The notes beneath the pieces were generated by a model that saw only the letters and a list, made by a program, of their open reading frames with translations, was not told the DNA's origin and did not search any database. From the sequence record NC_054930.1: 64,000 bases of DNA; one strand, 5' to 3'. The number at the start of each line of letters is the position of its first letter. Within the stretch, counting starts at the first letter, position 1. The stretch is from Escherichia phage PP01. The translations under genes were made by a program, and so were the position numbers. Shown piece by piece: positions 2,163 to 62,752 of the stretch.

Positions 2163-2768
2163 GTGATTATTTCTAAGTTTGTTACAATAAAACCAAGAAA
2201 TCATTCAAAAATGTGGTCGACAATTCTGGGATATAAAGTATCATATCATGATACAGTATCTGTTCCAATAGAATTAATGCCAAAGAATAGTAATAAAATA
2301 GTTGACGCTAAATGTGATTTGTGTGGTATTAAATTTAGTAGAAGCATTCAGCTTTTAAATAGAACACCAACGCATGCATGTAGAAAATGTAGCATTAAAC
2401 AAGTTGCTATTAAAAATTCGGAAGTTCAATCTGGAATAAGTAGACCATGGCAAAGAGGTGATAAACATCCTCGATGGACTGGTAAAAGAAAAGAGTTTGC
2501 ATTATATGCTAGTAGAGTTCATTCTATAACTAAGTCAGCTAAAATAAGAAAAATCTGGTCAAAATGGCCAAATGCTGATAAAATAGGAGTGTGTGGCGTA
2601 GAAGGTGCTTACCAACTCGATCATAAAGTATCTATCAAATATGGATTTGATAATTTAATTCCGCCGGAAATTATAGCAAGCGTAAAAAATTTAGAAATAA
2701 TCACTTGGGAATCTAACCGAGAAAAATCAAAAAGAAATAGCGTAGATCTTTGGGATTTACTAGAATGA
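2163..2768 (+). CDS. Free-standing HNH-family endonuclease (putative homing endonuclease) with N-terminal Cys4 zinc-finger-like motif
   Basis: 201 aa; CDLCG...CRKC cysteine pairs; C-terminal LDHKVSIKYGFDN...WESNREKS fits the H-N-H signature; GTG start 6 nt after GAGGA; inserted between genes 18 and 19. Confidence 0.75.
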   Translation: MIISKFVTIKPRNHSKMWSTILGYKVSYHDTVSVPIELMPKNSNKIVDAKCDLCGIKFSRSIQLLNRTPTHACRKCSIKQVAIKNSEVQSGISRPWQRGDKHPRWTGKRKEFALYASRVHSITKSAKIRKIWSKWPNADKIGVCGVEGAYQLDHKVSIKYGFDNLIPPEIIASVKNLEIITWESNREKSKRNSVDLWDLLE

Positions 2769-8800: not shown

Positions 8801-9471
8801 CTATTTTATACGATAGCAATCAGGCATATCATCCGCATTTATCCAATTGCGAATAGTTTTAGGACTAACTTTAAAATGCTCCGCTGCGTAATCAGGATTA
8901 TCAAATTTAACGCCCTTTATACATATTGGAATAAATTTTTTAATACCACCAAGTTTTTCAGAAATAGCTTTACGGTGTGAAATCGATATAGGTTTATTTT
9001 TTCGTGGATGAACATGTGTTTTATAATATTCATTGCGCCCTTTAACTCGCTTCGCAATAGTTTCATCAGATTGCTTAACGCCTGTTTTTGCCTTTGATAT
9101 TTTTCGTTTAGCTTCCACAGTCATTCCTTCTTTTGTTCGTATTGATAACATATTACGATATGAAGGATCTTGCAAATGAACTATAACTGGATTTCCTCTG
9201 CCACCAATAGCAGCATTATAGGTATCAGTTCTCATAACGAATTCCTCATTGACTAGTAAAGCTTCCATTTTATACATCTCCTCAGATGAGGAGAAAGAAT
9301 AAAGAATTTCTTTTTAAAGTTATGAATACCATATTTTTTGATGGATTTTTTGATGTTTACGCCAGAACCCATATAACCATCGTTTTCGTCAAGAGTAGCA
9401 TGAGCTCCGATGTAAATTTTTCCATTGATGATATTAGTAATTTGATATATTAAATATTTCATTTTAAACAT
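8801..9471 (-). pseudogene. segD: GIY-YIG homing endonuclease segD, split by a -1 frameshift in an A5 tract (N-terminal ORF to 9253, C-terminal ORF 8801..9277)
   Basis: N-terminal part has [18 protein letters not shown]...YMGSG (GIY-YIG); restoring one A at about 9311-9316 fuses ...[30 protein letters not shown]... into a 223-aa protein, the remembered T4 SegD length. Confidence 0.75.
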
Positions 9472-9484
9472 CGCTCCGTTTGTA

Positions 9485-9522
9485 TATGAATATAATATCA
9501 TATTACTTTGGTCTTGTAAATA
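9485..9522 (-). promoter_or_regulatory. Early-type promoter for segD (TTTACA, 17 bp, TATTAT)
   Basis: Read on the minus strand upstream of the segD start. Confidence 0.45.
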
Positions 9523-14569: not shown

Positions 14570-14582
14570 AATATTTCCTCAG

Positions 14583-14590
14583 TATAAATA
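14583..14590 (+). promoter_or_regulatory. Late promoter TATAAATA for uvsW
   Basis: Exact TATAAATA about 29 nt upstream of ATG 14620. Confidence 0.65.
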
Positions 14591-14619
14591 TAGATATATT
14601 TATTACATGGTATTTAGAC

Positions 14620-16131
14620 ATGACTGACATTAAAGTACATTTTTACGATTTTAGTCACGTGAGAATTGATTGTGAAGAAAGTACATTTCATGAACTCCGT
14701 GATTTCTTTAGCTTTGAAGCTGATGGGTATCGTTTTAATCCGAAATACAAATATGGTCACTGGGATGGACGAATCCGTCTTTTAGATTATAATCGCCTTC
14801 TTCCATTCGGTTTAGTTGGGCAAATTAAAAAGTTCTGTGATAACTTTGGCTATAAAGCCTGGATTGACCCGCAAATTAATGAAAAAGAAGAATTATCAAG
14901 AAAAGATTTTGATGAATGGATTTCTAAATTAGAAATCTATTCAGGAAATAAAAGAATTGAACCACACTGGTATCAAAAAGATGCAGTGTTCGAAGGATTA
15001 GTTAATCGTCGTAGAATTCTTAATCTTCCAACATCCGCAGGTAAATCTTTAATTCAAGCTTTGCTTGCACGTTATTATTTGGAAAATTATGAAGGTAAAA
15101 TTCTTATCATTGTTCCAACAACTGCTTTAACAACTCAGATGGCTGATGACTTTGTTGACTATCGTTTATTCAGTCATGCAATGATAAAGAAAATCGGTGG
15201 TGGAGCATCAAAAGATGATAAATATAAAAATGATGCACCAGTCGTTGTGGGTACATGGCAAACTGTAGTAAAACAACCAAAAGAATGGTTTTCCCAATTT
15301 GGTATGATGATGAATGATGAATGCCATCTTGCTACAGGAAAAAGTATTTCATCTATCATATCGGGTTTAAATAACTGCATGTTCAAATTCGGTTTGTCTG
15401 GTTCATTACGTGATGGAAAAGCCAATATCATGCAGTATGTTGGAATGTTTGGTGAAATATTTAAGCCAGTAACGACTTCTAAATTAATGGAAGATGGGCA
15501 AGTAACTGAGCTAAAAATTAATAGTATTTTTCTTCGCTATCCTGATGAGTTCACTACTAAATTAAAGGGAAAAACTTACCAAGAAGAAATAAAAATTATT
15601 ACTGGACTCAGTAAAAGAAATAAATGGATTGCTAAATTAGCTATTAAACTTGCACAAAAAGATGAAAACGCTTTTGTCATGTTTAAGCATGTATCACATG
15701 GTAAAGCTATTTTCGATTTAATTAAAAATGAATACGATAAAGTTTATTACGTATCAGGGGAAGTTGATACCGAAACACGCAACGTAATGAAAACCTTAGC
15801 TGAAAACGGTAAAGGAATAATTATAGTAGCTAGTTATGGTGTATTTTCTACTGGTATTTCAGTTAAAAATCTGCATCACGTTATTTTAGCGCACGGTGTT
15901 AAATCTAAAATTATTGTATTGCAAACAATAGGTCGCGTATTACGTAAGCATGGTTCTAAAACAATCGCAACGGTCTGGGACCTCATAGATGATTGTGGTG
16001 TTAAGCCAAAATCTGCTAATACGAAAAAGAAATATGTTCATTTGAACTATCTTTTAAAACACGGCATTGATCGTATTCAGCGCTACGCAGATGAAAAATT
16101 TAATTACGTAATGAAAACAGTTAATTTATAA
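14620..16131 (+). CDS. uvsW: UvsW SF2 DNA helicase (recombination and repair)
   Basis: 503 aa; Walker A PTSAGKS and DECH box; synteny. Confidence 0.95.
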   Translation: MTDIKVHFYDFSHVRIDCEESTFHELRDFFSFEADGYRFNPKYKYGHWDGRIRLLDYNRLLPFGLVGQIKKFCDNFGYKAWIDPQINEKEELSRKDFDEWISKLEIYSGNKRIEPHWYQKDAVFEGLVNRRRILNLPTSAGKSLIQALLARYYLENYEGKILIIVPTTALTTQMADDFVDYRLFSHAMIKKIGGGASKDDKYKNDAPVVVGTWQTVVKQPKEWFSQFGMMMNDECHLATGKSISSIISGLNNCMFKFGLSGSLRDGKANIMQYVGMFGEIFKPVTTSKLMEDGQVTELKINSIFLRYPDEFTTKLKGKTYQEEIKIITGLSKRNKWIAKLAIKLAQKDENAFVMFKHVSHGKAIFDLIKNEYDKVYYVSGEVDTETRNVMKTLAENGKGIIIVASYGVFSTGISVKNLHHVILAHGVKSKIIVLQTIGRVLRKHGSKTIATVWDLIDDCGVKPKSANTKKKYVHLNYLLKHGIDRIQRYADEKFNYVMKTVNL

Positions 16132-25082: not shown

Positions 25083-25136
25083 TCCTCATGTTATGTCAGT
25101 AAGATTATTATAACACAACACGAGGGACTTGTAAAC
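25083..25136 (-). promoter_or_regulatory. T4-type early promoter plus leader (-35 GTTTACA, 17-bp spacer, -10 TATAAT, SD GAGGA); copy A of a 54-bp exact repeat
   Basis: Minus-strand reading GTTTACAAGTCCCTCGTGTTGTGTTATAATAATCTTACTGACATAACATGAGGA; identical to 40667-40720. Confidence 0.8.
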
Positions 25137-27193
25137 TACATTTTGAACTTTTTAGACATTCCGTTGATGTTAACCAAAGAAGCCAAGATTTGAGAAACTT
25201 CATTTTCCTCTTCTTTTGATTCTTCTACAAGGAATTGATTAAATCCAGCCATTGGACGAACTTCACCAGTTTCCATTAGATGGTCGCCATCATATACCGA
25301 TTCTTTTAATTGTTCAGAAGGAGGAACGATTGTGCCTTCGATTAAATACTTATTATAAGCAGTTTCTTTCATCATGTACGTACTCACTTTATTAATCTTC
25401 AGCAAAATTCCACGCGGTAAAATAACTTCAGCTTCTGACGGAAATCCTGATAAATGCCCTGGAACGATAACTTTGATTCGCTCAGCTCCTTTAATTACCA
25501 TACCCACGCTAGTTTCAGCATCTTCATTCGCATAAGCAGAATGACTGCCCATATGCATTAAATCTTCAGCATCAACGGAACCTTCTCCTTCACCAGAAAA
25601 TACTGCACCGGAATCATCTAGAGCCATATAGTTTTTACCATACTCACCGAAGATATTTGGTTTAAGCGATGTGGATACGAAGTTCTTGAAATAGAACATT
25701 TTATTTTCAATATTATGACGTAAAGTTTTAAAGGTAACTTCTTGTCCACGGTAAAGTGTAGTTCCTGGAGGAAGAACTGATCCTTTGGCAAAGGCAGAAT
25801 CCATTGTCTCGATGTGTTTAATAGCTCGTTCCATGTATTCTTCACGTGTAGAATCCGGTTTACCTAAAAGGAACGAGTTCATTTCAACATATGAATCTGC
25901 ACAATAATCTTCAATTACATCAGACTCAGCCTGAGTTAATCCTTTTGGAGTTACTTCAGTACTTGCATATTCATACGCTTGAGAAGCAGACTCATTAATC
26001 AATTTATAAACGCCATTCATGACAAATTGAATAATAGCTACCTTTTCATCTGGCGTGGCTTTAGAACCTTTAACTAAATCATTGACGATTTTCTTAATAA
26101 CATCAAAGCTATTAGAAATATTAATGTCAGCAAGATCGCTTAAAATTTTATCAGTTTTATAATCAAAAAATTCTTTATTCTTTAAATATTCTTGAGAACC
26201 TTGATATGTTATATCGCTCTGTAACTTGATAGATGGATCACGTAAACGTGCATGAGCCAATGCAATATGATTTCGGAAGCTTTCTAGTTCATAATCACTA
26301 GATTTAAAACGAGAAGCACTTCTCATACCACCGATAGCTCCTTTGCTGAAGTTTGAACCAACCTGAATAACGCCGGAGTTCATTGGTCCTTCTGCTTTAT
26401 ATACCGGAACTTTAGATTCAAACTCTTGGTATTTCTTAGCAGCGAAGCTATCACCCTGAAGTGAAGCATCGACGGTAGAGTATTGAGCTTGTGCTGCTAA
26501 TCGACGACTAATTTTAGTTTTCTGAATAACAGCTTGATCCGTGCGCTTATCATTTTCTAAAGCAATAGAAGCGGCAACAGCGACAGCTTTAGGAACAGCA
26601 TTACCTGTTTTAACATCTACATAAACATCACCAACCTTTGATTCAACTTTTGTGAATAACTCAGTTGAAATAGGAGGTACACCTGGAATGTCTTCTAAAT
26701 TGGCATTTTTACGGTAAACCATAATATATGCATATTTCTTATCATAGTCCCAGATTTCCTTTAAAAGAACATATCGACCTGCTCCTTTAGTACGTACTAA
26801 ACGGTCGGCAATAACTTGCATTTGACGAGCTGCGCCATTTGTTTTACTCTTTAGTACGCGGAATAAGCATGCGTCAATTTTGTACTGTTTCATTGTCTGA
26901 AGAGCAGTATCAAAAACCGCATTAATGACACCAATTGGATTTCCACCCAAGTTTTTAAGTTTAACTAATGATAGTTTCTCATTAACACCTATCATTACGA
27001 TATGCATCATTTTATCGCCTGGCTTAACGTTTTTATTCGTATCACCGCCAGAGGTGTATGTACAAAATCTAAATCCAGGAAGCACGCTTTCTTCGCCTGC
27101 TTGAATAGCAAAAATTTGAGGTATTTTATGCTTAGGATTTAAGTTAACAACCGGCGCCGAAGCGCCGTCAAATAATTCTGTAATAAGTTCCAT
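25136..27193 (-). CDS. Alt-family ADP-ribosyltransferase, paralog 1 (685 aa)
   Basis: N-terminus MELITELFD; ART signature YRGQ ... FVSTSL ... SEAEVILPRG (Arg, S-T-S, E-x-E); paralogous to the adjacent ORF. Confidence 0.88.
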   Translation of the reverse strand: MELITELFDGASAPVVNLNPKHKIPQIFAIQAGEESVLPGFRFCTYTSGGDTNKNVKPGDKMMHIVMIGVNEKLSLVKLKNLGGNPIGVINAVFDTALQTMKQYKIDACLFRVLKSKTNGAARQMQVIADRLVRTKGAGRYVLLKEIWDYDKKYAYIMVYRKNANLEDIPGVPPISTELFTKVESKVGDVYVDVKTGNAVPKAVAVAASIALENDKRTDQAVIQKTKISRRLAAQAQYSTVDASLQGDSFAAKKYQEFESKVPVYKAEGPMNSGVIQVGSNFSKGAIGGMRSASRFKSSDYELESFRNHIALAHARLRDPSIKLQSDITYQGSQEYLKNKEFFDYKTDKILSDLADINISNSFDVIKKIVNDLVKGSKATPDEKVAIIQFVMNGVYKLINESASQAYEYASTEVTPKGLTQAESDVIEDYCADSYVEMNSFLLGKPDSTREEYMERAIKHIETMDSAFAKGSVLPPGTTLYRGQEVTFKTLRHNIENKMFYFKNFVSTSLKPNIFGEYGKNYMALDDSGAVFSGEGEGSVDAEDLMHMGSHSAYANEDAETSVGMVIKGAERIKVIVPGHLSGFPSEAEVILPRGILLKINKVSTYMMKETAYNKYLIEGTIVPPSEQLKESVYDGDHLMETGEVRPMAGFNQFLVEESKEEENEVSQILASLVNINGMSKKFKM

Positions 27194-27196
27194 GAT

Positions 27197-29290
27197 TTAT
27201 CCTTGAACGAACTTGTAAGGCATGTTTGTAATATCTATGCAAGACGCAATAATTCCAAGAGATGATTCTACTTTCTGTTTAATATTTGATGAAACAAATG
27301 ATGCAAAGTCAACTCTGTCTTCTATTTCAATATCATCTGTCATTGCAACTACTTCGCCGGTTTCCATTAGACGGTCACCGTCATAAATTACTGATTCGGT
27401 GAGTTCTTCCGTAGTCATAACTTCAGCTTGAATGAGTTTTGTATTATTAGATGTTGTTCCGTCATTATTAGAAGCATCAGTTATTTTATTAACTTTGACC
27501 ATCAATCCGCGTGGTAGAATAACTTCAGCTTCTGTTGCTATTCCGAGACTTCCTGGATATACAACATTAACTTTATGAGCTCCATCAATTGCCCATCCTA
27601 TTTGAACTTTAACGTATTCAGGATTTTCTTTATACGCTCTTATTTCGTTTGGATTGATAGTTATTCCTTCTTCATTTTTATCAACTGTTAATTCATTACG
27701 AGCTTCTGGTTCTAAAAGACCTATACCAGCATGTGTAATTCCAAAACGTCCAAAAATGATAGGAGTTAAAGAAGTAGATACAAAATTTCTGAAATAGAAC
27801 ACTTTATTTTTAACTAGTGCTTCGTATATAGGAGCAGTCATGCTTTGAGCACGATAAACTGTAATGCCTTCTGGTATACGGTCACCATTTTCAAAAGCTG
27901 AATCTAAATTATTTATCGCAGATTCAATTTCTTTTTCACTCATTACATCATATCGTTCTGGATTGTAGCGGCCTAAAAGAAGATTATTGATGTCAGTATA
28001 TCCTGATCCACAATACTCTCTAATGCCGCGCTTTTGCGATGGAGTATATTTAGAACCATCACGTGCAATGGTAATATCAATCATTGGACCTGCACCAATT
28101 CCAGAAAAGCTATAAATCATTCGTTTGAGGAATTTAGTTTTTGCTGCGTTCCAGGAATTTTTAGTTATTTCTTCCCAGACTTCATCTGGCTGCCCTTTAC
28201 GAGTTTTATTATGTTTATCAAGCCAATTATCTTTATATTCTTCAAAGAATTGATTAACAGCTGCTGCGTATTTCTCTAAACATTTTATTGAAGTAGTTGG
28301 TTCATTTTTAATCGCATTAAGAATTACATCTTTAATTTTTTCAGAAACTTCATTAACCTCACTTTTTGAAAAGAATTTATAATCATAGTGAAGTTCATCT
28401 GCAGTTCCTTCAGCAATAATTTTTGCTGCCTTAGTTTTAGAAGCTAATGAATTAATTCCAAGTTTCATTTCTTCTGCTTCAGGAATTAAAGGAGCTGTAG
28501 CAGGTTTATTGAAATTAGCTGCGGTAGATTCATACTTCTGGAATAATTCACTTTCAAATCTAGAAGATTCTAATGATTGACTTTGCGCAATTGCTCTACG
28601 GGAAATTTTAACTTTAACGATTACAGCTTGGTCAGAACGTTTATCATTTTCTTGTGCAATAGAAGCAGCAATTGCCTCATTTTTAGTTACTTGAGCTCCA
28701 GTATCTTTATTAATATAAACATCGCCGACTTTCGATTCAACTTTAGTAAAGAGCTCGGTACTAATTTCCGGAACTCCTGGAATGTCTTCTAGTGATACAT
28801 TTTTGCGATGTATAAGAATATATGCATACTTTTTATCATAATCCCAGAGTTCCTTAAGAAGGACGTATCTGCCACCTGAACGACTACGGATAAGTCTATC
28901 AGCAATAACTTGAATTTGTCGAGCTTGACCAGCAGTTTTAGACTTAAGAATACGAAGCATGCAGGCATCAATTTTATACTGACGCATTGTTTGCATTGCA
29001 ATAGTAAAAACTGAATTGATATAATTAATTGGGCTTGGACCGAGACCTTTTAATTTAGCAATTGAACCTTTAGCAGTTAATGTAAAAGGAACAATATGCA
29101 TCATTTTATCGCCCATTTTTAAATCGCGATTAGTATCACCTCCAGATGTATAGGTACATAAACGAAAGCCTGGTTGTTCAATTGCGTCATCAACGTGAAC
29201 TGAAAAAATTTGTGGTATTTTCTTCTTTGGATTTAAGTTTGTAATCGGAAGAGTAGTATCTTCGTCAAATAATTCTGTAATAAGTTCCAT
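27197..29290 (-). CDS. alt: Alt-family ADP-ribosyltransferase, paralog 2 (697 aa from the second ATG), RNA polymerase ADP-ribosylase-like
   Basis: N-terminus MELITELFDEDTTLPITNLNPKKK; ART signature YRAQ ... FVSTSL ... TEAEVILPRG; GAGG RBS 6 nt before the second ATG. Confidence 0.88.
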   Translation of the reverse strand: MELITELFDEDTTLPITNLNPKKKIPQIFSVHVDDAIEQPGFRLCTYTSGGDTNRDLKMGDKMMHIVPFTLTAKGSIAKLKGLGPSPINYINSVFTIAMQTMRQYKIDACMLRILKSKTAGQARQIQVIADRLIRSRSGGRYVLLKELWDYDKKYAYILIHRKNVSLEDIPGVPEISTELFTKVESKVGDVYINKDTGAQVTKNEAIAASIAQENDKRSDQAVIVKVKISRRAIAQSQSLESSRFESELFQKYESTAANFNKPATAPLIPEAEEMKLGINSLASKTKAAKIIAEGTADELHYDYKFFSKSEVNEVSEKIKDVILNAIKNEPTTSIKCLEKYAAAVNQFFEEYKDNWLDKHNKTRKGQPDEVWEEITKNSWNAAKTKFLKRMIYSFSGIGAGPMIDITIARDGSKYTPSQKRGIREYCGSGYTDINNLLLGRYNPERYDVMSEKEIESAINNLDSAFENGDRIPEGITVYRAQSMTAPIYEALVKNKVFYFRNFVSTSLTPIIFGRFGITHAGIGLLEPEARNELTVDKNEEGITINPNEIRAYKENPEYVKVQIGWAIDGAHKVNVVYPGSLGIATEAEVILPRGLMVKVNKITDASNNDGTTSNNTKLIQAEVMTTEELTESVIYDGDRLMETGEVVAMTDDIEIEDRVDFASFVSSNIKQKVESSLGIIASCIDITNMPYKFVQG

Positions 29291-29324
29291 CATATCCTCT
29301 CTAGTGTTTATTCTATTTATAAAA

Positions 29325-36586: not shown

Positions 36587-36819
36587 AGTACGCCATACAC
36601 CCTTTGTGCTTCAACTAATCCATCAAAATCCAATTTGAGATGTGTTATTTGGTCACCATCACCTGGATTCACAATTACTAATACTGAACGAGGAGTTTCG
36701 GTAATAACACGAACCGACGTTTCAGGAAATCGTTCAGAAACCTTATTTACCAATTCCTGAGCAAATAGTTTAACTTTTTCTTGGAATTCTTTAACAGTAA
36801 TTGGATTTTCACTTAGCAT
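36583..36819 (-). CDS. Hypothetical protein (cd.2 position)
   Basis: 78 aa ORF. Confidence 0.6.
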   Translation of the reverse strand: MLSENPITVKEFQEKVKLFAQELVNKVSERFPETSVRVITETPRSVLVIVNPGDGDQITHLKLDFDGLVEAQRVYGVL

Positions 36820-37340
36820 GTTGATCCAAGCTCCTTACTTTCAACGTTTTTAACTAATTTGACAGAAACTAATTCAGCATCTTGAGTAATCATTACCGGA
36901 CCTTCTTCATACTCTTCAAGATATTCTAGAGCTTTCTTTTTAGCTTCTTCCTTCGTATCAGTTTGAGCATAGATATAGAACATACAACCAGTAATACCTA
37001 CTACTTTCCACTTAATTTCTTTATCAGCTTTAATTTCAAATTTACTGGCAGAATCATCTTTTTGAACTTCTTCGAAAAAAGAATATTCTAACATATAAGC
37101 AATTGAAAATAACGGACTAACTTTATAGGATTCGCCCATTACATCAACAGCTTTATACCAACAGTCATCAATTTCGCGTTTAATGCTAATAACATTTTTC
37201 GCAGGATCTATTTTTACTTTAAATGAATTTTCCCCAATAAACTGGGCAATTCGTTTATTAGCCCCACAAGTTTCATTAAAAATATCTTTATATCCAGCTT
37301 TAAAGCGATAAACCTTATCTTCTTCAAACCATTCGCTCAT
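36813..37340 (-). CDS. Hypothetical protein (cd.3 position)
   Basis: 175 aa ORF. Confidence 0.65.
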   Translation of the reverse strand: MSEWFEEDKVYRFKAGYKDIFNETCGANKRIAQFIGENSFKVKIDPAKNVISIKREIDDCWYKAVDVMGESYKVSPLFSIAYMLEYSFFEEVQKDDSASKFEIKADKEIKWKVVGITGCMFYIYAQTDTKEEAKKKALEYLEEYEEGPVMITQDAELVSVKLVKNVESKELGSTC

Positions 37341-38071: not shown

Positions 38072-39289
<1,218 letters not shown>

Positions 39290-39293
<4 letters not shown>

Positions 39294-40724: not shown

Positions 40725-42312
<1,588 letters not shown>

Positions 42313-42320
42313 AATAAAAT

Positions 42321-42334
42321 GGGCCTTGCGGCCC
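42321..42334 (-). terminator. Hairpin GGGCC-GCAA-GGCCC (minus-strand reading) after nrdB
   Basis: Inverted repeat. Confidence 0.4.
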
Positions 42335-42339
42335 ACTCC

Positions 42340-43509
42340 TTAAAAATATTTTTTAAAACTCATCATAACTTTATCATCAACATCATTATCAATCTGTGCT
42401 ACAAGGTAAGATGACAGTTCTACTTCTTGCGGCGCGGATTGAACATTATCAGAATTAAGATATTCACGAATCCAAGGATATGGATGTTTAACCGGAGCAT
42501 CGGTAATTGGGCATGGAAGACCGCACTGTTTCATACGAGATACAGTTAAGTAATCAATAAAGCTCCACATGCTATTTGTATTTAATCCAGGAACATCACC
42601 ATCTTTAAATAAATGAACTGCCCAATCTTTTTCTTGACGGTTAACTTCCATGAAAATATCAACTGCTTCTTGTTCACACTCTTGAGCAATTTTAACCCAT
42701 TCATCACCGTCAGTGCCAAGTTGAAGTTGACGAATAATATATTGAGTGCCTTTAAGATGAAGTTGCTCATCGCGCGCAATGAACTTCATAATCTTAGCAT
42801 TACCTTCCATGATTTCCATGTTCTTATGGAAGTTAAAGGTACATGCGAAAGATACATAAAAACGAATAGCTTCCAATGCATTGATTACATGAAGGCAAAG
42901 ATAAAGAGATTTCATTAGTGCTCGTTTAGTACATTCAACAACTTTGCCTAACTCTTCTTTACGAAATCCTTCTGATAAAATTCCTTCATAATCTTCAACC
43001 GCATTCTGATATTCACGAGTCTTAACTAGAACATCATCATAATAGCGACCAATGGACTCGGCACGTTTCATAATAGCTTTATCTAATACAATCTCATCAA
43101 ATACCTTTGATGGATCAGTATAAAGATTTCGCATGATATGAGTATATGAACGGCTGTGAATAGTTTCACTAAAAGTCCATGTAGCAACCCATGTATCAAG
43201 ACTTGGGTCTGAAATTAATGACATAAGTACAGCAGACGGTGCACGACCCTGAATGCTATCCAAAAGTGATTGATACTTCAGGTTATTAGTAAAAATATCT
43301 TGCTGATACTGAGGAAGCTTGTTAAATTGTGCAGCATCCATCATCAAGTTTACTTCTTCAGGACGCCAGAAAAATGACAACTGCTTTTCAGTTAAATCTT
43401 CAAAAACTTTATGACGTTGAATATCATAACGCGCAATACCAAGACCTGAACCGAAGAACATAGGTTCTTTTAAAACATCAACTGGATTTGTATTAAAAAC
43501 TGTGCTCAT
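42340..43509 (-). CDS. nrdB: Ribonucleotide reductase small subunit, uninterrupted (no intron)
   Basis: 389-aa continuous ORF. Confidence 0.95.
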   Translation of the reverse strand: MSTVFNTNPVDVLKEPMFFGSGLGIARYDIQRHKVFEDLTEKQLSFFWRPEEVNLMMDAAQFNKLPQYQQDIFTNNLKYQSLLDSIQGRAPSAVLMSLISDPSLDTWVATWTFSETIHSRSYTHIMRNLYTDPSKVFDEIVLDKAIMKRAESIGRYYDDVLVKTREYQNAVEDYEGILSEGFRKEELGKVVECTKRALMKSLYLCLHVINALEAIRFYVSFACTFNFHKNMEIMEGNAKIMKFIARDEQLHLKGTQYIIRQLQLGTDGDEWVKIAQECEQEAVDIFMEVNRQEKDWAVHLFKDGDVPGLNTNSMWSFIDYLTVSRMKQCGLPCPITDAPVKHPYPWIREYLNSDNVQSAPQEVELSSYLVAQIDNDVDDKVMMSFKKYF

Positions 43510-43560
43510 AAATTTTCCGCTTAGTTAATAGATAGTGACTCGTCCGTGAGTCAAATTATA

Positions 43561-45825
43561 TCATAATTTACAGGATGAACAATCTTCAGCTTTTGGAGTT
43601 TCTATTTCATAATCATCAGTACCAGAACCATCACGGGTATTATGATAATAGAAATTTTTTCCGCCAAAATACCAAAAATACAAAAGGTCATCAATCATTA
43701 CAGACATTGGAACCTTTCCTTTTGGAAAAATCTGCGGGTCATAATATGTATTCGCTGAAGCTGATTGACATACCCATTTCAGCATAATAGCTACCTGCGT
43801 AAGATAAGGTTTATTACCTTTCTTAGCTAATTTCCATGTATAATCATAGAGGTCTATGTTATGTTCAATATTGGGCACGACTTGATTAAAGGAACCCTCT
43901 TTTGATTCTTTAACCGAGACTGGTCCACGTGGAGGCTCGATACCATTTGTACTGTTAGAAACTTGGGAAGATGACTCACATGGCATAAGTGCTGATAATG
44001 TGCTATTACGGATGCCAAAGAGCTTAAGGTCTTCCCGCAGCGCCGACCAGTCACAAACGTATTTTGGAGCTGCGATTTGATCAATCTTTTTATTGTACCA
44101 GTCGATAGGTAATTCGTCTCGAGACCAACGAGTGTCTGAATAATATTCGCAAGGTCCTTTTTCTTTGGCGAGCTTAATGGATGCTTTAATGAGTCCATAC
44201 TGTAGTCTCTCAAATAGTTCATGTGTTAAATCGTTAGCATCTTCATAAGAAGCAAAGTTACTTGCCAGCCAAGCTGCATAGTTAGTAACACCTACACCAA
44301 GATTTCGACGCTTTTTAGCTTTTTCTGCTTCAGGAACTGGATATCCTTGGTAATCCAAAAGATTATCAAGAGCACGAACTTGGACTTCTGCCAATTCATT
44401 AATTTTATCTTGGTCTTGCCAATCGAAGTTATCCAACACAAATGCAGATAACGTACACAATCCAATTTCAGCATCAGGACTATTCACATCATTTGTTGGA
44501 ATAGCAATTTCACAGCACAAGTTACTCTGACGAATAGGTGCCTTTTCACGAATAAACGGAGTATAGTTATTCGTATTATCAATGAACTGTACATAAATCC
44601 TTGCTGTTCCTGAGCGTTCAGTCATGAGCAATTCAAATAATTCACGAGCTTTAATACGCTTTTTACGAATATTAGGATCTTTTTCTGCTGCTTCGTATAA
44701 TTCACGGAAACGGTCTTGGTCTTTAAAATAAGAATAATAAAGCTCGCCACCCATTTCATGCGGACTGAACAAAGTAATGTAGTCGTTCTTTCCAAACCGT
44801 TCCATCATCAAATCATTCAGCTGGACGCCATAATCCATATGACGGATACGGTTTTCTTCTACACCTTTGTTATTTTTCAAAACGAGAAGATTTTCAACTT
44901 CCAAATGCCAAATAGGATAATAAGCAGTAGCAGCGCCGCCACGAATTCCGCCCTGTGAACATGATTTAACAGCAGTCTGAAAATGTTTCCAAAAAGGAAT
45001 AACCCCAGTATGACGCACTTCACCTGTGCCAATCTTAGAACCTTCGGCACGAATCATACCAACGTTAATGCCGATTCCAGCTCGTTTAGAAATATACTCA
45101 ACAATTGAAGCAGAAGCCTTATTGATAGACTTCAGCGAATCACCTGCCTCAATAACAACGCATGAACTAAATTGCCGAGTCGGAGTACGACATCCAGCCA
45201 TAATAGGAGTTGGCAATGAAATCTGTCGAGTAGATACTGCTTCATAAAAACGGATAACGTGTTTTAATCTATCAACAGGTTCATCTTGATGCAATGCCAT
45301 TCCAATAGTCATAAATGCAAACTGTGGAGTTTCATAAATTTGACCAGTGGTTTTATCTTTAACGAGATATTTTTCTTTTAATTGCATCGCCCCGGAATAA
45401 GTAAATTCCATATCCCGCTCATGCTTAATTTTTGATTCTAAAAATGTAATTTCTTCTGCTGAATATTTTGACAACAATTCAGGGTCATATTTACCTTCAT
45501 TTACGCAGTAAGAAATATGGTCAATAAATGAACGTGGTTCATACTGCCCATAAACATGCTTACGAAGAGCGAACATTAAACAGCGCGCAGCTACGTATTG
45601 ATAATCAGGCTCTTCAACTGAAATAGAATTCGCAGCAGCCTTAATGACAATAGTCTGAATGTCATCAGTTGTCATTCCATCACGGAGATATGATTTAATA
45701 TTTTCATATAATTCATAAGGATCTACAGATGTTCCTTCAGCTGCCCAAGATAAAACTTTAATAATTTTTTGCGGGTCAAAGCTTTGAGAAACACCACTAC
45801 TTTTGATAACATTAATTAATTGCAT
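43561..45825 (-). CDS. nrdA: Ribonucleotide reductase large subunit
   Basis: 754 aa; synteny. Confidence 0.96.
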   Translation of the reverse strand: MQLINVIKSSGVSQSFDPQKIIKVLSWAAEGTSVDPYELYENIKSYLRDGMTTDDIQTIVIKAAANSISVEEPDYQYVAARCLMFALRKHVYGQYEPRSFIDHISYCVNEGKYDPELLSKYSAEEITFLESKIKHERDMEFTYSGAMQLKEKYLVKDKTTGQIYETPQFAFMTIGMALHQDEPVDRLKHVIRFYEAVSTRQISLPTPIMAGCRTPTRQFSSCVVIEAGDSLKSINKASASIVEYISKRAGIGINVGMIRAEGSKIGTGEVRHTGVIPFWKHFQTAVKSCSQGGIRGGAATAYYPIWHLEVENLLVLKNNKGVEENRIRHMDYGVQLNDLMMERFGKNDYITLFSPHEMGGELYYSYFKDQDRFRELYEAAEKDPNIRKKRIKARELFELLMTERSGTARIYVQFIDNTNNYTPFIREKAPIRQSNLCCEIAIPTNDVNSPDAEIGLCTLSAFVLDNFDWQDQDKINELAEVQVRALDNLLDYQGYPVPEAEKAKKRRNLGVGVTNYAAWLASNFASYEDANDLTHELFERLQYGLIKASIKLAKEKGPCEYYSDTRWSRDELPIDWYNKKIDQIAAPKYVCDWSALREDLKLFGIRNSTLSALMPCESSSQVSNSTNGIEPPRGPVSVKESKEGSFNQVVPNIEHNIDLYDYTWKLAKKGNKPYLTQVAIMLKWVCQSASANTYYDPQIFPKGKVPMSVMIDDLLYFWYFGGKNFYYHNTRDGSGTDDYEIETPKAEDCSSCKL

Positions 45826-46142
45826 AAGTCCTCAACTTGAAAATCGTCTTTAAACAATCGGTTAACTATATGAGCTATTATATCACCATGACACGGCTTT
45901 GGTTTACATGTGCATCCTAGCCTCATTCCACGTAAAGGCTCTAAATGTGCTTTAGTTATTTCTCCGGATTTAATTCGACGTATAAAATCTTTTTTAAATA
46001 ATTCAATGGCAGCCTCCCGGCTGCCAGCATCTTTACCGACGTAATTTCCCCAAAATGTACCGCGGTGAATATTAACATCAAAGTCGGATTTATATTTATT
46101 CACTACCCGGCATAGACGGCCCGCGCGGTGATAATTCAGCAT
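45816..46142 (-). CDS. Small protein with C-x-C...P-C-H-G-D motif (nrdA.1 position)
   Basis: 108 aa; ...[18 protein letters not shown]... Confidence 0.65.
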
Positions 46143-46371
46143 ATTGTTTTTCCGTCAAAACAGTAATATCGTAGTAACAGTCAGAAGAAGTTTTAACTGT
46201 GGAAATTTTATTATCAAAATACTCACGGGTCATTTTATGAGTATAATATTTTTTACCATAAATGATAATAGGCTGATTTGGTCCTGGAACTTCTAACTCA
46301 CTTGGGTTAGGAAGTGTAAAAAGAACGGCACCAGAAGTATCTTTAAATCGTAAAATCATATATCCTCTCAA
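46096..46371 (-). CDS. Hypothetical protein (nrdA.2 position)
   Basis: 91 aa ORF; start uncertain. Confidence 0.55.
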
Positions 46372-46382
46372 TTAAATTAAAA

Positions 46383-47243
46383 TTATACCGCCATCTTTCC
46401 TTTAATTGGCGGGTGAGATACATAGTTGTTAAGAACGAAATCTTTAGGTCTAAGTTTAAGAACATATTTTAATTGTTCTTTAGTAGAAAGATATCGGAAT
46501 TTATAAGGTAGACCACTTATTACCAGCTCACAAAGCTCTTTAGGTTCACGCCTCAAAATTTCTTTACACTGTTCTACGTGATTCATATAGATATGAGTAT
46601 TACCACCAGAAAATATCAAATCTCCTGGAATAAGATTACACATCTTAGCTACAATATGAACTAACGTAGCATATGATGCAATATTAAATGGAAGACCGAG
46701 AAAAACATCTACCGAACGTTGATACCACTGCAAATCCAAATAGCCATTACGCACATTAAACTGATAGAACATATGACAAGGCGGTAATGCCATATATTTA
46801 AGTTCAGCTGGATTCCATGCTGAAACAATTTGACGCCTATCATTTGGCAGTTTTTTAATACGATCAACAACTTCTATAATTTGGTCTACACCACCAAAAT
46901 CACGCCACTGTTTTCCATAAATTGGACCAAGTTCACCGCTATGATACCCTAAATCTTTTGCCTGATTTTCGTAATTTTCATCCCAAACTGTTTTGCCTTG
47001 AATTAATGAATCGTGCTGAATTAATCGTAAATCATTGACATTTGTGCTTCCTGATAAAAACCAAAGCAGCTCAGCAATGCAAGCTTTCCAGGCGAGCTTC
47101 TTAGTTGTTACCGCAGGAAAACCTTTAGTTAAATCCCAGCGTAATTTAGTACCAAACAAAGCAATTGTTCCTGTGCCTGTTCGGTCATCGGTTTCATAGC
47201 CATTTTCAAAAATGTCTTTAATTAAATCTTGGTATTGTTTCAT
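46383..47243 (-). CDS. td: Thymidylate synthase, uninterrupted (no group I intron)
   Basis: 286-aa continuous ORF; N-terminus MKQYQDLIKDIFENGY; active-site PCH. Confidence 0.97.
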   Translation of the reverse strand: MKQYQDLIKDIFENGYETDDRTGTGTIALFGTKLRWDLTKGFPAVTTKKLAWKACIAELLWFLSGSTNVNDLRLIQHDSLIQGKTVWDENYENQAKDLGYHSGELGPIYGKQWRDFGGVDQIIEVVDRIKKLPNDRRQIVSAWNPAELKYMALPPCHMFYQFNVRNGYLDLQWYQRSVDVFLGLPFNIASYATLVHIVAKMCNLIPGDLIFSGGNTHIYMNHVEQCKEILRREPKELCELVISGLPYKFRYLSTKEQLKYVLKLRPKDFVLNNYVSHPPIKGKMAV

Positions 47244-47288
47244 TTAGTACCTTATATAAATTATAATACATTTTATGAAGCTAAATAA

Positions 47289-47636
47289 TCAATACGGTTT
47301 AGCATCAAATTTTCTCTCAATTTCAGGCGTGAAGTATAATTCTTTGCCACGTTTGGAAAAGCGACCAATAATATGATAATTATTCTCATCAAACGTAATA
47401 TTGCCAATATCCATGGCTTTCAACCAAATATCGATATTTCTATCCAGTTTTATATCAAAATTCCAATACGGAGAACTATTACCGAAAATACTGCAAGCGG
47501 ATTCAGTGAAACAACTACTATAAATCTTGTCTTTAGGAACTACTAATTGATAGACGCCTTTAATAAACTGAGGACCCTGCCATTTAGGTTGTTTCGCGTC
47601 TTTTTCTAATAGAATAGGGTAATAATTAAAATTCAT
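47289..47636 (-). CDS. Hypothetical protein inserted between frd and td (115 aa from ATG; 119 aa from the upstream GTG at 47648)
   Basis: ORF filling a roughly 410-bp frd-td spacer; no recognisable motif. Confidence 0.55.
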   Translation of the reverse strand: MNFNYYPILLEKDAKQPKWQGPQFIKGVYQLVVPKDKIYSSCFTESACSIFGNSSPYWNFDIKLDRNIDIWLKAMDIGNITFDENNYHIIGRFSKRGKELYFTPEIERKFDAKPY

Positions 47637-47656
47637 ATTTTCCGCCACGCATTATT

Positions 47657-48483
<827 letters not shown>

Positions 48484-48493
48484 ATTATTTTCC

Positions 48494-48736
48494 TTAAACA
48501 GACTTTTTCACAATTTTCCAATCAGCTTTAAACTGCTCGACGTCAGAATGGTAAATCCAGAATCCTGCGCTTTCTCCATCCTCATAAAGAGGACATCCAT
48601 CGCATTCATCTTCCCATCCCATATCACGTAAAAGATGTTCAGCTTTTTCAACAAGTTCAGAATCTTTACCGATGATATTAAAATACCATTTACCTCTAAC
48701 TTCTGAATCTTTGATGCTTTGGCGTTGTAATCTCAT
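48494..48736 (-). CDS. Hypothetical protein (frd.2 position)
   Basis: 80 aa ORF. Confidence 0.6.
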   Translation of the reverse strand: MRLQRQSIKDSEVRGKWYFNIIGKDSELVEKAEHLLRDMGWEDECDGCPLYEDGESAGFWIYHSDVEQFKADWKIVKKSV

Positions 48737-48790
48737 TTTATTCTCCTTAATTGATAGGGTAATAGTATCACGCTACTACCCTTCTGTAAA

Positions 48791-49171
48791 CTACTTTTTG
48801 AAAGTTTTTCGCAAAAGTTCAATGATTTCATCTACATTGTTTTCGTCAACAATGCAGTGAATTTTTGTTACGCCAGAAACCGGGTCTTTGACTTCATCTT
48901 TTTCAGAAGTCGGTTCTTTATACTCACGAAAACAATGAAATTCGTCTTCGCAAATTTCTAAAAGTCTATCTTTGAGGTAAAAATGTTTTCCATTTGCGCA
49001 TTCAATGTGTTTTACTGCTTTATATCCATTAGCGACGGAAACTTCTTTAACTTCAAACCATCCGCCATTCTCTCGAATGGCTTTAACTATTGATGAATTA
49101 GAACGTGGGCTATAATTAATAAATGTATCAATAAGTCTTGGAACAAGTTCATACTTTTTACCGGTATACAT
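48791..49171 (-). CDS. Hypothetical protein (frd.3 position)
   Basis: 126 aa ORF. Confidence 0.6.
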   Translation of the reverse strand: MYTGKKYELVPRLIDTFINYSPRSNSSIVKAIRENGGWFEVKEVSVANGYKAVKHIECANGKHFYLKDRLLEICEDEFHCFREYKEPTSEKDEVKDPVSGVTKIHCIVDENNVDEIIELLRKTFKK

Positions 49172-49215
49172 TACGGTTTCCTCATTTTAACGGGGCTGTA
49201 ATAGCCCCTTGATAA

Positions 49216-49443
49216 TTATTGTTCAATCAGTCCCATGTAAAATTCTGCGTCTTCAGAATCCATGCCATCACAATATTCATTAGCCATAAAGAGGGTGAGG
49301 TCTTCAAGAGGACCTTTAATAACGATTTGAATACTCCAAAACTTAGAATCTTGCACGCTTGTGATACTAAGTTCAGGATAACGATTACGAATAATCTCTT
49401 CAATATATTCAAAATCAACGATGTCAATATCAACTTTAGCCAT
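49216..49443 (-). CDS. Hypothetical 75-aa protein; the start is reassigned to ATG 49443 because an early-type promoter lies inside the longer ORF
   Basis: AAAGAGGAAAATAAT-ATG RBS; GTTTACA, 17 bp, TACTAT at about 49465-49512 on the minus strand. Confidence 0.5.
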
Positions 49444-49540
49444 ATTATTTTCCTCTTTAATCATCAGCAGTATTGCCGATAGTTGTATAGTACCATGGAA
49501 GGACAAGGATGTAAACAGTTTTGTGAAAAATTTTTAAATT

Positions 49541-49562
49541 AAAAAAGGGGACCCTAGAGGTC
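49541..49562 (-). terminator. Hairpin GGGGACC-5 nt loop-GGUCCCC after gene 32
   Basis: 7-bp inverted repeat. Confidence 0.55.
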
Positions 49563-49587
49563 CCCAATTAATTAGTAATATAATCTA

Positions 49588-50496
49588 TTAAAGGTCATTC
49601 AAAAGGTCATCCAGGTCCGTGTCATCAGCACTAGATGAACTGCTAGAGCTTGAGCTCATAAAATCATCTTCAGTTTTTGTATTGAAGTCATCAACATTGA
49701 ATGCATCCAAATCATCAGCAACTTTATCAGCTTTCTTAGCAGCAGTTGCAGCGGCACCGCCCATCACAGCAGTTCCCATAACTTGACCGAATTTAGTATT
49801 CAGTTCTTCAAACGATTTGAATTTATCTTTAGAAGTCATTTCAGAAAGGTCAACCATTTGTTCGAACAGTTCTTTCTGGAAAGATTCATCGTCAATGTTT
49901 GGAATCGCAGATTGATTCAGGAATTTAGATTCATCGTAGTTACTAAATCCGGAAACTTGTTTAACTTTCAGTACAAAGTTAGCACCTTCCCACGGGCAAG
50001 TTACATCAACCGGAGTTTCACCCATTTCGACATCAACCGCAATCATTGCATTGATTTTATCCCAGATTTTCTTACCGAAACGGTATTTAAATACTTTACC
50101 TTCGTTTTCTGGAGCAGCTGGGTCTTTTACTACAAGAATGTTAGCCCAGTAAGAAGTTTTACGTTTAACAAGACCGTACTCTTTATTGTCAGTGTTGTAC
50201 AGATCATTTTTACTGATGTACTGACATACTGGGCAAGAATCGTAATCACCGTGGGTAGATGAACAGTTTTCAATATACCATTTACCATTTTTCTTGAAAC
50301 CGTGATTTACAAGAATTGCGAATGGTGCTTGTTCATCATTTTTAGACGGAAGAAAACGAATTACTGCTTGACCGTTACCCGCATTGTCGAGTTTCAGTTT
50401 CCACTCGCCTTTATCTTCAGAAGAAAAACCACCTTTATTTCCAGCCAGTTTAGCCATTTGTGCAGCGAGTTCAGCAGTAGATTTACGTTTAAACAT
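49588..50496 (-). CDS. 32: Single-stranded DNA-binding protein gp32
   Basis: 302 aa; N-terminus [17 protein letters not shown]; acidic C-terminus with a poly-Ser run. Confidence 0.97.
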
Positions 50497-50565
50497 TTTT
50501 ATTTCCTTTTTAATTTAATTAACAGTTGGTGCTATGACGATGTATGACCTCATAGCTGGTCAGTG
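50497..50565 (-). promoter_or_regulatory. Gene 32 autoregulatory translational operator (5' leader with pseudoknot plus A/U-rich gp32 binding region)
   Basis: Minus-strand reading GCUAUGAGGUCAUACAUCGUCAUAGCAC...UUAAUUAAAUUAAAAAGGAAAUAAAA-AUG matches the remembered T4 operator. Confidence 0.7.
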
Positions 50566-50595
50566 AGATAATTATAATTTATTTATAATAAGCAA

Positions 50596-51249
50596 TTAAT
50601 ACTTACAAGATTTCACAGTTTCAATAAAAACTTTTTTAGCTTCCTGTGAATCGATATTTAAAATTTTTCTATAAGCTTTTAACTTTATAGAATAATTGTT
50701 CCAAACTAAATTATCAGTTTGTTCATCATGTTTATCAATTATATTTAAAAATGAATCAAGCAAGATAAACGTTTCAAACGAAATTATGTTCGACTGAAGC
50801 AGTTTAAAAATATAACTTGATTGAACCTTTGGATTATATTCAAAGATTTCTTTAAAAGCAGAAACTTCAACTTTTTTACTAAAATAATAAATGTTGCGAA
50901 TATCTTCTTCAAACTTAAATTTAATTTGCTTTAAGCGTCCGATATATTCACGATAAAACACAAGTGCATCAGCGTCAGAGATGTCACCAATCCAAGCATC
51001 TTGGTTAGCAACAAGATTGCTTATAAAGATTAAAGCAAGTTCCTTTAATTTATATTTTTCTGATAACTTCTGGAAAAAATACTTATCCCTTCGCTTTTGA
51101 TAAGCGGCATCAGACACCCGCATGCACCAATTATACTTAATTACATCATACTTTCCATTCATATGTTGTTTTATCATTAAGTATAATTTATAAACTGATT
51201 TACCATCAATATATCTTTCACCACCAGCAGGCATGCGGAGTTTAATCAT
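50596..51249 (-). CDS. 59: Helicase loader gp59
   Basis: 217 aa; synteny. Confidence 0.93.
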   Translation of the reverse strand: MIKLRMPAGGERYIDGKSVYKLYLMIKQHMNGKYDVIKYNWCMRVSDAAYQKRRDKYFFQKLSEKYKLKELALIFISNLVANQDAWIGDISDADALVFYREYIGRLKQIKFKFEEDIRNIYYFSKKVEVSAFKEIFEYNPKVQSSYIFKLLQSNIISFETFILLDSFLNIIDKHDEQTDNLVWNNYSIKLKAYRKILNIDSQEAKKVFIETVKSCKY

Positions 51250-51259
51250 AGTAGAAAAT

Positions 51260-51583
51260 CTAATGTATTAGTTTTTCACAACGAACAACAGAAGGACGTA
51301 AAAGATTTTCGTCAATGGCTTCTGACTGAATTTTTTCAATTATACCCGAAGGAATAAATTTAGCAAATTGAGTTTCAGGAATAGAATTTTCTTCTAAGAA
51401 TGCTGTTGTAGCTTCAAGATAACTCATTCCAAACTCTTCTACCATTTTTTCAATAATAAATCCATTTTCTTGGCGGTCAAGAAGCTTTGCTATTTCATCC
51501 TTTTCTTTCTTAATTGAAAGTTCTTTTTCTGAAAGACCGGTCTCATCGACCGGACGAATATCATTTAGAGAAAACTGTGTCAT
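51260..51583 (-). CDS. 33: Late transcription co-activator gp33
   Basis: 107 aa from ATG 51583 (the ORF-track start 51592 is TTG); synteny. Confidence 0.8.
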   Translation of the reverse strand: MTQFSLNDIRPVDETGLSEKELSIKKEKDEIAKLLDRQENGFIIEKMVEEFGMSYLEATTAFLEENSIPETQFAKFIPSGIIEKIQSEAIDENLLRPSVVRCEKLIH

Positions 51584-58581: not shown

Positions 58582-62722
<4,141 letters not shown>

Positions 62723-62752
62723 TTTGAATAAATATCCTTAAAAGGAGGGTCT

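Follow-up and report, generated by a model that had tools for sequence, protein, structure and literature searches.

A T2-type, intron- and endonuclease-free nrd, td and gene 32 region in a Tequatrovirus, a predicted target of the T4 homing endonucleases

Introduction

Homing elements are spread unevenly among the T-even phages, a pattern on record from the late 1980s onward; intron distribution was reportedly first described by Quirk (1989) and by Sandegren and Sjoberg (2004). In crosses that follow T4 homing and marker exclusion, the recipient has classically been T2. We asked which of the T4 elements occupy the nucleotide-metabolism genes of the phage analyzed here, and what the state of its insertion sites would mean in an encounter with T4. 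The window, a 64,000-nucleotide stretch of Escherichia phage PP01, belongs to a Tequatrovirus: its best database matches are Tequatroviruses with 95–97% identity, and the closest database genome is only ~96–97% identical. A first-pass annotation had described td and nrdB as continuous and the region as poor in homing elements. We compared the window with the T4 reference (NC_000866) by blastn and junction alignments.

td and nrdB are continuous across the T4 intron sites

The genes and sites from nrdB to td, all on the minus strand, are as follows.

42340–43509, minus strand: nrdB, uninterrupted, class Ia ribonucleotide reductase (RNR) small subunit, 389 aa (ORF; Pfam)
42842–42843, minus strand: empty nrdB group I intron site of the T4/RB3 type (junction 42843 to 42842)
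42900–43040, minus strand: hypervariable NrdB surface-loop cassette, aa ~160–200 (alignment)
43384–43388, minus strand: MobE-dependent nick position (mapped in T2 nrdB), nrdB nt 122–126, T2-type allele (alignment)
43510–43560, minus strand: nrdA-nrdB spacer, 51 bp (ORF ends)
43561–45825, minus strand: nrdA, uninterrupted, 754 aa (ORF; Pfam)
45816–46371, minus strand: nrdA.1 (DUF4326) and nrdA.2 (DUF5496), small ORFs (domain matches)
46383–47243, minus strand: td, uninterrupted thymidylate synthase gene, 286 aa (ORF; Pfam)
46677–46721, minus strand: empty td intron site in the I-TevI homing site, td nt 523–567 (junction 46695 to 46694)

The td product matches the Pfam model Thymidylat_synt over its whole length (positions 1–266 of 266, E = 2.4e-95) and is identical to spliced T4 Td at 283 of 286 residues. 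A T4-type td intron would appear as an insertion of ~1 kb after td nt 549, with a group I core and a GIY-YIG ORF for I-TevI; the window td has none. The T4 td intron (1017 nt in NC_000866) is missing exactly between 46695 and 46694, and the junction is in frame. NrdB matches Ribonuc_red_sm (E = 2.6e-37), shows by eye the Trp of FFWRPEE and the motifs SETIHSRSY, NALEAIRFY and ARDEQLHL, and its gene is collinear with spliced T4 nrdB and with T2 nrdB. An intron of the T4/RB3 type, which would add 0.6–1.1 kb after nrdB nt ~664 and carry I-TevIII, is likewise absent from the window nrdB: the 598 nt of the T4 intron are missing exactly between 42843 and 42842, again in frame, and the flanks depart from intron-deleted T4 at 2 nt just upstream. 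The nrdA product has full-length matches to Ribonuc_red_lgC, Ribonuc_red_lgN and ATP-cone, and the gene is 95.6% identical to that of T4 at the nucleotide level. The small genes nrdA.1 and nrdA.2 are also present in T4 and T2.

We also searched for the intron RNA itself. At the Rfam gathering threshold nothing was matched in the window, nor in the T4 control with its two group I introns, and this negative is uninformative because the control was blank as well. In permissive mode, the group I core (RF00028) was recovered from both T4 control introns (td, E = 9e-8; nrdB, E = 2e-6), and none was found within window positions 42300–47700. The exact junctions and the lack of a group I core bear out the earlier reading that the T4 introns carrying I-TevI and I-TevIII are absent, and the alignment of the whole region with T4, the check proposed with that reading, revealed no insertion misread as a continuous ORF. 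td, nrdB and nrdA are ordinary uninterrupted genes for which splicing is unnecessary.

The intergenic positions of mobE, segG and segE are empty

The features around frd, genes 32 and 59 and the inh-uvsW position are as follows.

47289–47648, minus strand: optional ORF between frd and td, 115–119 aa (ORF; RB32ORF229c in the T2 annotation)
47657–48238, minus strand: frd, dihydrofolate reductase (ORF; Pfam)
49588–50496, minus strand: gene 32, single-stranded DNA-binding protein, 302 aa (ORF)
50497–50595, minus strand: 32-59 spacer, 99 bp, with the late-promoter motif TATAAATA and a T2-type gene 32 mRNA pseudoknot/operator
50596–51249, minus strand: gene 59, helicase loader (ORF; T4 alignment)
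14570–14619, no strand assigned: inh-uvsW spacer, segE absent (T4 alignment)

The first-pass annotation had taken the short nrdB-nrdA and 32-59 spacers to mean that mobE and segG are absent, and both the ORF coordinates and the T4 comparison agree. Where T4 has nrdB.1 and mobE (~700 bp), the window has the 51-bp spacer, which contains no ORF, no mobE, no nrdB.1 and no U-tract terminator. A free-standing mobE (or hef) would be seen as an HNH ORF of at least ~140 aa with an internal terminator, and there is none at nrdA/nrdB. Phages without mobE have no terminator at this position (PMC2790892). In T4, segG (633 bp) lies between genes 32 and 59 according to the T4 annotation, which agrees with the first-pass annotation; T4 147918–148542 has no counterpart in the window, and no GIY-YIG ORF of ~630 bp separates genes 59 and 32. 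The 32-59 spacer is that of T2 save for 1 nt. Both the nrdA-nrdB and the 59-32 spacers contain short regulatory sequence only. A repeat search over 42000–51500 gave chance-level short repeats only, and a promoter/terminator scan stayed at background level.

The same holds at inh-uvsW, where T4 112044–112680 (segE) has no counterpart and the window alignment jumps from 14606 to 14626; the gap in T2 is likewise 50 bp. In total, five T4 segments are precisely missing in the T4 alignment: the td intron with I-TevI, the nrdB intron with I-TevIII, nrdB.1 plus mobE, segG and segE. The absence of segE had gone unmentioned in the first-pass annotation, as had the optional ORFs, not found in T4, that flank td and frd. 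In T4, frd and td overlap, without the frd-td ORF. This ORF has no Pfam or NCBIfam match, belongs to phrog_1928 (unknown function), has only three homologous clusters in a large protein database, and gives a poor AF2 model (pLDDT 61.5).

The window carries a frameshifted segD and an HNH-like ORF

A homing endonuclease gene and an HNH-like ORF lie outside this region.

8801–9501, minus strand: segD, GIY-YIG homing endonuclease gene with a −1 frameshift (T4 alignment; ORFs)
2163–2768, plus strand: free-standing 201-aa ORF with a GTG start between genes 18 and 19, in a 642-bp insert relative to T4

The window segD is 99.4% identical to T4 segD at the nucleotide level, with flanks at ~96%. As had been noted, it is frameshifted: it is one A short of T4 segD (A6 to A5 near 9316, codon ~52), which leaves ORFs of 82 and 158 aa, and no intact SegD frame (~223 aa with a GIY-YIG domain) is present in the window. 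In our phage collection segD was found in only 53 records; among the 14 of these that were listed, the copies for which an aligned length could be compared (RB18, T6, PST, ECML-134 and others) are one base longer across that stretch. The frameshift, a single base in a homopolymer, may be a sequencing error.

The 201-aa ORF had been called an HNH gene. The ORF and its insertion were confirmed, and the HNH assignment is probable rather than certain. The sequence contains a Cys4 cluster and an HNH-like D-H...N...N motif, whose residues D153, H154, N176 and N185 are invariant across 27 homologues; the residues expected of a beta-beta-alpha-metal nuclease, a catalytic His and a metal-binding/structural Asn, are present. 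Its nearest known counterparts are the HNH (beta-beta-alpha-metal) nicking and homing endonucleases, such as Gme HNH (4h9d), the phage GVE2 HNH protein (5h0o) and the T4 Mob proteins. It has no Pfam or NCBIfam match, and thus no curated HNH model. Its PHROG matches are phrog_5104 (unknown function) and, weakly, phrog_12131 ('homing endonuclease', E = 4e-4), all its homologues are named 'hypothetical', and a BLASTP comparison with T4 MobE showed no similarity. Sequence matches in the PDB were discarded as chance zinc-finger matches. On its sequence, the protein is probably an HNH nuclease. We suggest only tentatively that it represents a family, as yet undescribed, of zinc-ribbon HNH homing endonucleases that are free-standing and mobile among Tequatroviruses and remoter T4-like phages. 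Taken with the cluster of silent differences in the I-TevI target (below), the phage might then act as donor at 18/19 while being partly protected at td, and so be more than a passive recipient of the T2 kind.

Other candidates were rejected as homing endonucleases. Four ORFs found in the window only (36813–37340, 38973–39293, 47289–47648 and 48238–48483) have no Pfam or NCBIfam nuclease match, and each belongs to a PHROG whose function is unknown. The denA product (41902–42336), with its GIY-YIG domain, is endonuclease II, encoded by a backbone gene in both T4 and T2. The homing-endonuclease complement differs from that of T4, as originally proposed: six such genes (segD, segE, I-TevIII, mobE, I-TevI and segG) lie in the matching part of T4, versus the frameshifted segD and one HNH-like ORF here.

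The layout is that of T2 and is common among relatives

Judged from the sequence, the nrd/td/32 segment is laid out as in phage T2. Aligned with T2 records, it forms one piece of equal length. T2 (e.g. MH751506) shares the uninterrupted td (861 bp) and nrdB, the 51-bp and 99-bp spacers, the optional ORFs RB32ORF229c (frd-td) and RB32ORF231c around frd, the MobE target type, the gene 32 pseudoknot type and the lack of segE, with ~95.6% nucleotide identity over 6.5 kb. Collinearity from nrdB to gene 59, the spacer lengths and the allele at the MobE nick region are all those of a T2-type recipient. NrdB has 389 aa here and 392 aa in T2 because the hypervariable loop cassettes differ; nucleotide identity in the cassette is 45–50% among the window, T2 and T4, against 91–100% in the rest of nrdB, and the window's version is present in 46 records. 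T2 differs also in lacking segD and the 18/19 ORF.

The best database match for the region is VEc74 (MT932213), which shares the gene order and the empty sites; its td is 98.5% identical and its I-TevI site is the same as the window's, whereas overall identity is only 96.7% and the nrdB-to-59 span has ~276 bp extra. T4 shares the backbone genes at 91–98% nucleotide identity. Its extras are the td intron with I-TevI, the nrdB intron with an I-TevIII relic, nrdB.1 plus mobE, segG and segE, whereas it lacks the 18/19 ORF, the frd-td ORF, the ORF upstream of frd and the second full-length alt copy.

The elements are patchily distributed in the phage collection. td matched 602 records, of which 398 had at least 80% of the gene in a single uninterrupted stretch, and the td intron was covered to at least 80% in 197 of the ~600 td-bearing records. 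The nrdB intron was found in 118 records, segG in 142, and mobE plus nrdB.1 in full T4-type form in 20 (143 with any match). Of 29 close relatives taken at even spacing through the match ranking, ~17–18 have no endonuclease-sized insertion from nrdB to gene 59. Most T-even genomes have few endonuclease insertions, T4 being the outlier (PMC2988022), and counts of homing endonuclease genes are 15 in T4, 1 in T2 and none in RB26 (PMC2993671, Table 5). The element-free state does not set this phage apart: T2 is arranged in this way and most of the relatives share it, and the intron- and endonuclease-free layout is already known and is the commonest known state. We conclude, with a probability of about 0.93, that the order denA-nrdB-nrdA-nrdA.1-nrdA.2-td-(optional ORF)-frd ... 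32-59 represents the T2-type, element-free nucleotide-metabolism cluster of Tequatroviruses, a predicted target of the T4 endonucleases.

Whether the sites were always empty is a separate matter. An ancestor might have lost its introns and endonuclease genes by recombination with element-free relatives. The genome is indeed a mosaic, its 18–24 segment, which includes the segD copy (closer to T4 than its flanks are), resembling T6, RB18 and ECML-134 and its nrd/td/32 segment T2 and VEc74, which indicates that exchange with element-bearing phages has occurred. We nevertheless consider such a loss unlikely: the junctions are exact, no partial intron or endonuclease remnant was found, and the flanks are of the T2 type and not the T4 type, most clearly in nrdB nt 1–200 (97–98% identity to T2 versus 82–85% to T4). 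Had an empty allele replaced the elements, the sequence would look no different, and the description of the present-day cluster is unaffected.

Predicted behavior in mixed infection with T4

The empty sites of the cluster closely match those of T2, and therefore this genome should come under attack from co-infecting T4. The predicted lesions are an I-TevI cut in td, 23–25 nt upstream of the insertion site, a MobE nick near nrdB nt 122–126, a SegG cut in gene 32 and a SegE cut in uvsW. With the T4 copy as repair template, each site and the markers beside it would become T4 sequence, resulting in homing and localized marker exclusion. Such cleavage and conversion are predicted by analogy with T2. 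In T4 × T2 crosses, I-TevI, mobE and I-TevIII are inherited at ~2 times the input ratio, and the MobE-dependent nicks in T2 nrdB map to nt 122–126 (PMC2790892). Over nrdB nt 101–160, a single nucleotide separates the window from T2, whereas T4 has many differences.

It could be argued that silent substitutions, at the I-TevI site and elsewhere, make the empty sites protected alleles, refractory to the T4 endonucleases. The 45-nt I-TevI homing site departs from intron-deleted T4 at 8 positions, all silent, and nowhere else in td are the differences so dense (a density equalled in 132 of 20000 permutations); position −19 (A to G) and the particular bases found at −22 and −3 also set the window apart from T2. 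However, T2 is itself variant at 6 of the 8 positions and yet inherits I-TevI at ~2 times the input (PMC2790892), the CAACG cleavage motif is intact in the window, and at the MobE target the window has the allele of T2, which is sensitive. I-TevI, moreover, tolerates many substitutions within its site. The cluster is equally explicable by the constraint on the T4 exons to pair with the intron guide sequence. We thus regard protection as improbable, and the td site would be expected to be sensitive to I-TevI. That the elements were lost in assembly, or the ORFs misread as continuous, is hardly credible given the in-frame junctions, the full-length Pfam matches and the recurrence of this uninterrupted arrangement in numerous independent genomes, several T2 records among them, the segD homopolymer deletion being the only possible sequencing artefact found.

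For annotation, td and nrdB of this phage are single-exon genes. Importance beyond annotation is small, T2 and many sequenced relatives already serving as recipients. The T2-type cluster leads us to predict that the phage, when co-infecting with T4, would behave like T2 and receive the td and nrdB introns, mobE, segG and segE, and that its own markers near the empty sites would undergo localized exclusion, a prediction that could be handy to users of the isolate.

Relatives and gene order of the nrdB–td region

In a nucleotide search of the phage collection, 6.5 kb around nrdB–td matched 882 phage records. The top matches were Tequatroviruses, among which VEc74 (96.7%), UFV13 (96.2%) and several T2 records (95.6%) each aligned as a single collinear piece. 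Over the window's initial 25 kb, no match in the collection exceeded ~96.6% identity. These matches, taken together, indicate that the window is that of a T4-like coliphage, mosaic relative to the phages in the collection. The 18–24 segment resembles T6, RB18 and ECML-134, and the nrd/td/32 segment resembles T2 and VEc74. The genes and spacers of the region, taken from the list of ORFs, are as follows.

Genes and spacers between nrdB and gene 59 (window coordinates)
42340–43509, minus strand, nrdB, 389 aa
43510–43560, nrdB–nrdA spacer, 51 bp
43561–45825, minus strand, nrdA, 754 aa
46383–47243, minus strand, td, 286 aa
47657–48238, frd
49588–50496, gene 32
50497–50595, 32–59 spacer, 99 bp
50596–51249, gene 59

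The ORF ends of nrdB and nrdA and of genes 32 and 59 thus define the two spacers, whose lengths agree exactly with those in the first-pass annotation. Full-length Pfam matches were obtained for thymidylate synthase (1–266 of 266), the RNR small chain and three RNR large-chain domains.

Where frd and td overlap in T4, the window has an ORF of 115–119 aa (47289–47648, minus strand), which is also present in VEc74. It had no domain match, a large protein database gave only three homologous clusters for it, and its AF2 model was too poor for use (pLDDT 61.5). Directly upstream of frd lies an 81-aa ORF (48238–48483, minus strand) that T4 does not have; it belongs to phrog_3183, of unknown function.

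Five T4 segments are absent

We aligned the whole window to T4 positions 88000–168903, assembled from the annotated record. Five T4 segments had no counterpart in the window.

T4 segments absent from the window (T4 coordinates; corresponding window position)
112044–112680; 14606–14626; segE
138457–139058; 42842–42845; nrdB intron
139719–140420; 43509–43565; nrdB.1 and mobE
143546–144571; 46694–46702; td intron
147918–148542; 50559–50595; segG

In the base-level alignment, the td intron (1017 nt in the T4 record) was missing exactly between 46695 and 46694, and at 42843|42842 the nrdB intron (598 nt in T4) was likewise precisely absent. The reading frame was kept across each junction, and the Td protein was identical to that of spliced T4 at 283 of 286 residues. 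Rfam at the gathering threshold gave no match in the window, a setting at which both T4 control introns were missed too. In permissive mode, which recovered the group I cores of the T4 positive control in td (E 9e-8) and nrdB (E 2e-6), no group I core was found in window 42300–47700. The first-pass annotation had described td and nrdB as continuous and intron-less, with neither mobE nor segG nearby. The ORF list, the Pfam matches, the in-frame junctions and the Rfam comparison bear this out, and the alignment, which disclosed no misread insertion, supports its proposal that the homing-endonuclease complement differs from that of T4. The absence of segE between inh and uvsW (window 14570–14619), as in T2, had escaped its list. 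Secondary loss of the elements from an ancestor would leave this description of the region unchanged and seems rather unlikely; no trace of such a loss is left.

Putative endonuclease genes and other features of the window

segD (8801–9501, minus strand) is 99.4% identical to T4 segD, against ~96% for the surrounding capsid genes, as expected of a recently transferred mobile gene. The frameshift previously ascribed to it is present in the sequence: one A is missing from an A6 run near 9316, leaving ORFs of 82 and 158 aa. The gene is present in 53 database records, and among the matches listed (RB18, T6, PST, ECML-134 and others) the segD stretch is one base longer than in the window, which suggests that the deletion is either private to the window sequence or a homopolymer sequencing error.

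T4 and T2 both lack a 642-bp stretch that the window carries between genes 18 and 19. Within it lies an ORF of 201 aa that starts with GTG. Searches of Pfam, NCBIfam and PDB sequences gave no match for this ORF, nor did it resemble MobE. It falls in a PHROG family of unknown function, and none of the 46 homologues found had been given a name. We regard this unannotated family as HNH-like.

Two ORFs without a T4 counterpart, at 36813–37340 (minus strand, 175 aa, between cd.2 and cd.3) and 38973–39293 (minus strand, 106 aa, between pseT and pseT.1), have no nuclease domains and fall in PHROGs of unknown function. Tandem full-length alt-like ADP-ribosyltransferase genes (25136–27193 and 27197–29293, minus strand; 685 and 698 aa), both with an ADPrib_exo_Tox domain, occupy the locus where T4 has one alt and the short relics alt.-1 and alt.-2. 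Hoc (12461–13879, minus strand) has 472 aa versus 376 aa in T4, and overlapping blastn pieces suggest an extra repeated domain. The distal tail-fibre region (58748–62728) did not align to T4 genes 37/38; the ORFs there, 1109 and 263 aa long, point to gp37 plus gp38 adhesin of the T2 type and so to a receptor specificity unlike that of T4. A T2-type gene 32 pseudoknot, CTGACCAGCTATGAGGTCATACATCGTCATAGC, lies upstream of gene 32 (50520–50567, minus strand), the T4 version being shorter and different. The window, T2 and T4 each have a version of their own, unrelated to the other two, of a ~30-aa NrdB loop (aa ~160–200; window 42900–43040), with 45–50% nucleotide identity versus 91–100% over the rest of nrdB.

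The target sites resemble those of T2

The annotated T2 record has an uninterrupted td of 861 bp, spacers of 51 bp (nrdB–nrdA) and 99 bp (32–59), and the extra ORFs RB32ORF229c between frd and td and RB32ORF231c upstream of frd, all of which the window shares. The 32–59 spacer, which contains the TATAAATA motif, differs from that of T2 by one base. MobE-dependent nicks were mapped to nt 122–126 of T2 nrdB (Wilson & Edgell, PMC2790892). Window nrdB nt 101–160, spanning this position (window 43384–43388), is identical to T2 except for one base, whereas T4 differs at many positions; over nt 1–200, the identity is 97–98% to T2 and 82–85% to T4.

The td homing site (window 46677–46721, td nt 523–567) keeps the CAACG motif and is identical to that of VEc74, but carries eight silent differences from intron-deleted T4. 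This 45-nt I-TevI site is the densest difference cluster in td, a density reached in only 132 of 20000 permutations. Such clustering could mean that the empty sites are protected alleles, refractory to the T4 endonucleases. However, T2, which is also variant at six of the eight positions, nevertheless acts as a recipient, and the clustering may stem from the requirement that the T4 exons pair with the intron; we consider protection decidedly improbable. In crosses of T4 with T2, the inheritance ratio of I-TevI, mobE and I-TevIII was in each case roughly double that of the input (PMC2790892). Together with the T2 layout and target alleles, this makes it most likely that the region would behave as that of T2, in which case the single-exon genes would be functional and the empty target sites sensitive.

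Frequency of the element-free state

The survey of T-even-like phages by Sandegren and Sjoberg in 2004 reportedly found the td and nrdB introns in a minority. In the phage collection, td was matched in 602 records, in 398 of which at least 80% of it was contiguous in one place. The td intron was at least 80% covered in 197 records, the nrdB intron was found in 118 and segG in 142; nrdB.1 with mobE was of the full T4 type in 20 records, with some match in 143. The span from nrdB to gene 59 was without an endonuclease-sized insertion in ~17–18 of 29 close relatives, which were taken at even spacing along the match ranking. An assembly artefact hiding the elements is very unlikely, because the in-frame junctions are common to many independent genomes.

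The nrd region is a hotspot for homing endonuclease insertions (PMC2790892). T4 has been called 'an oddity' with its 15 homing endonuclease genes, few being present in most T-even genomes (PMC2988022); T6 has 11, T2 has 1 and RB26 has none (PMC2993671, Table 5). The earlier observation is confirmed and its interpretation supported: the state of this region is the ordinary, long-known T2-type arrangement, whose empty target sites the T4 endonucleases would cut or nick and then convert.
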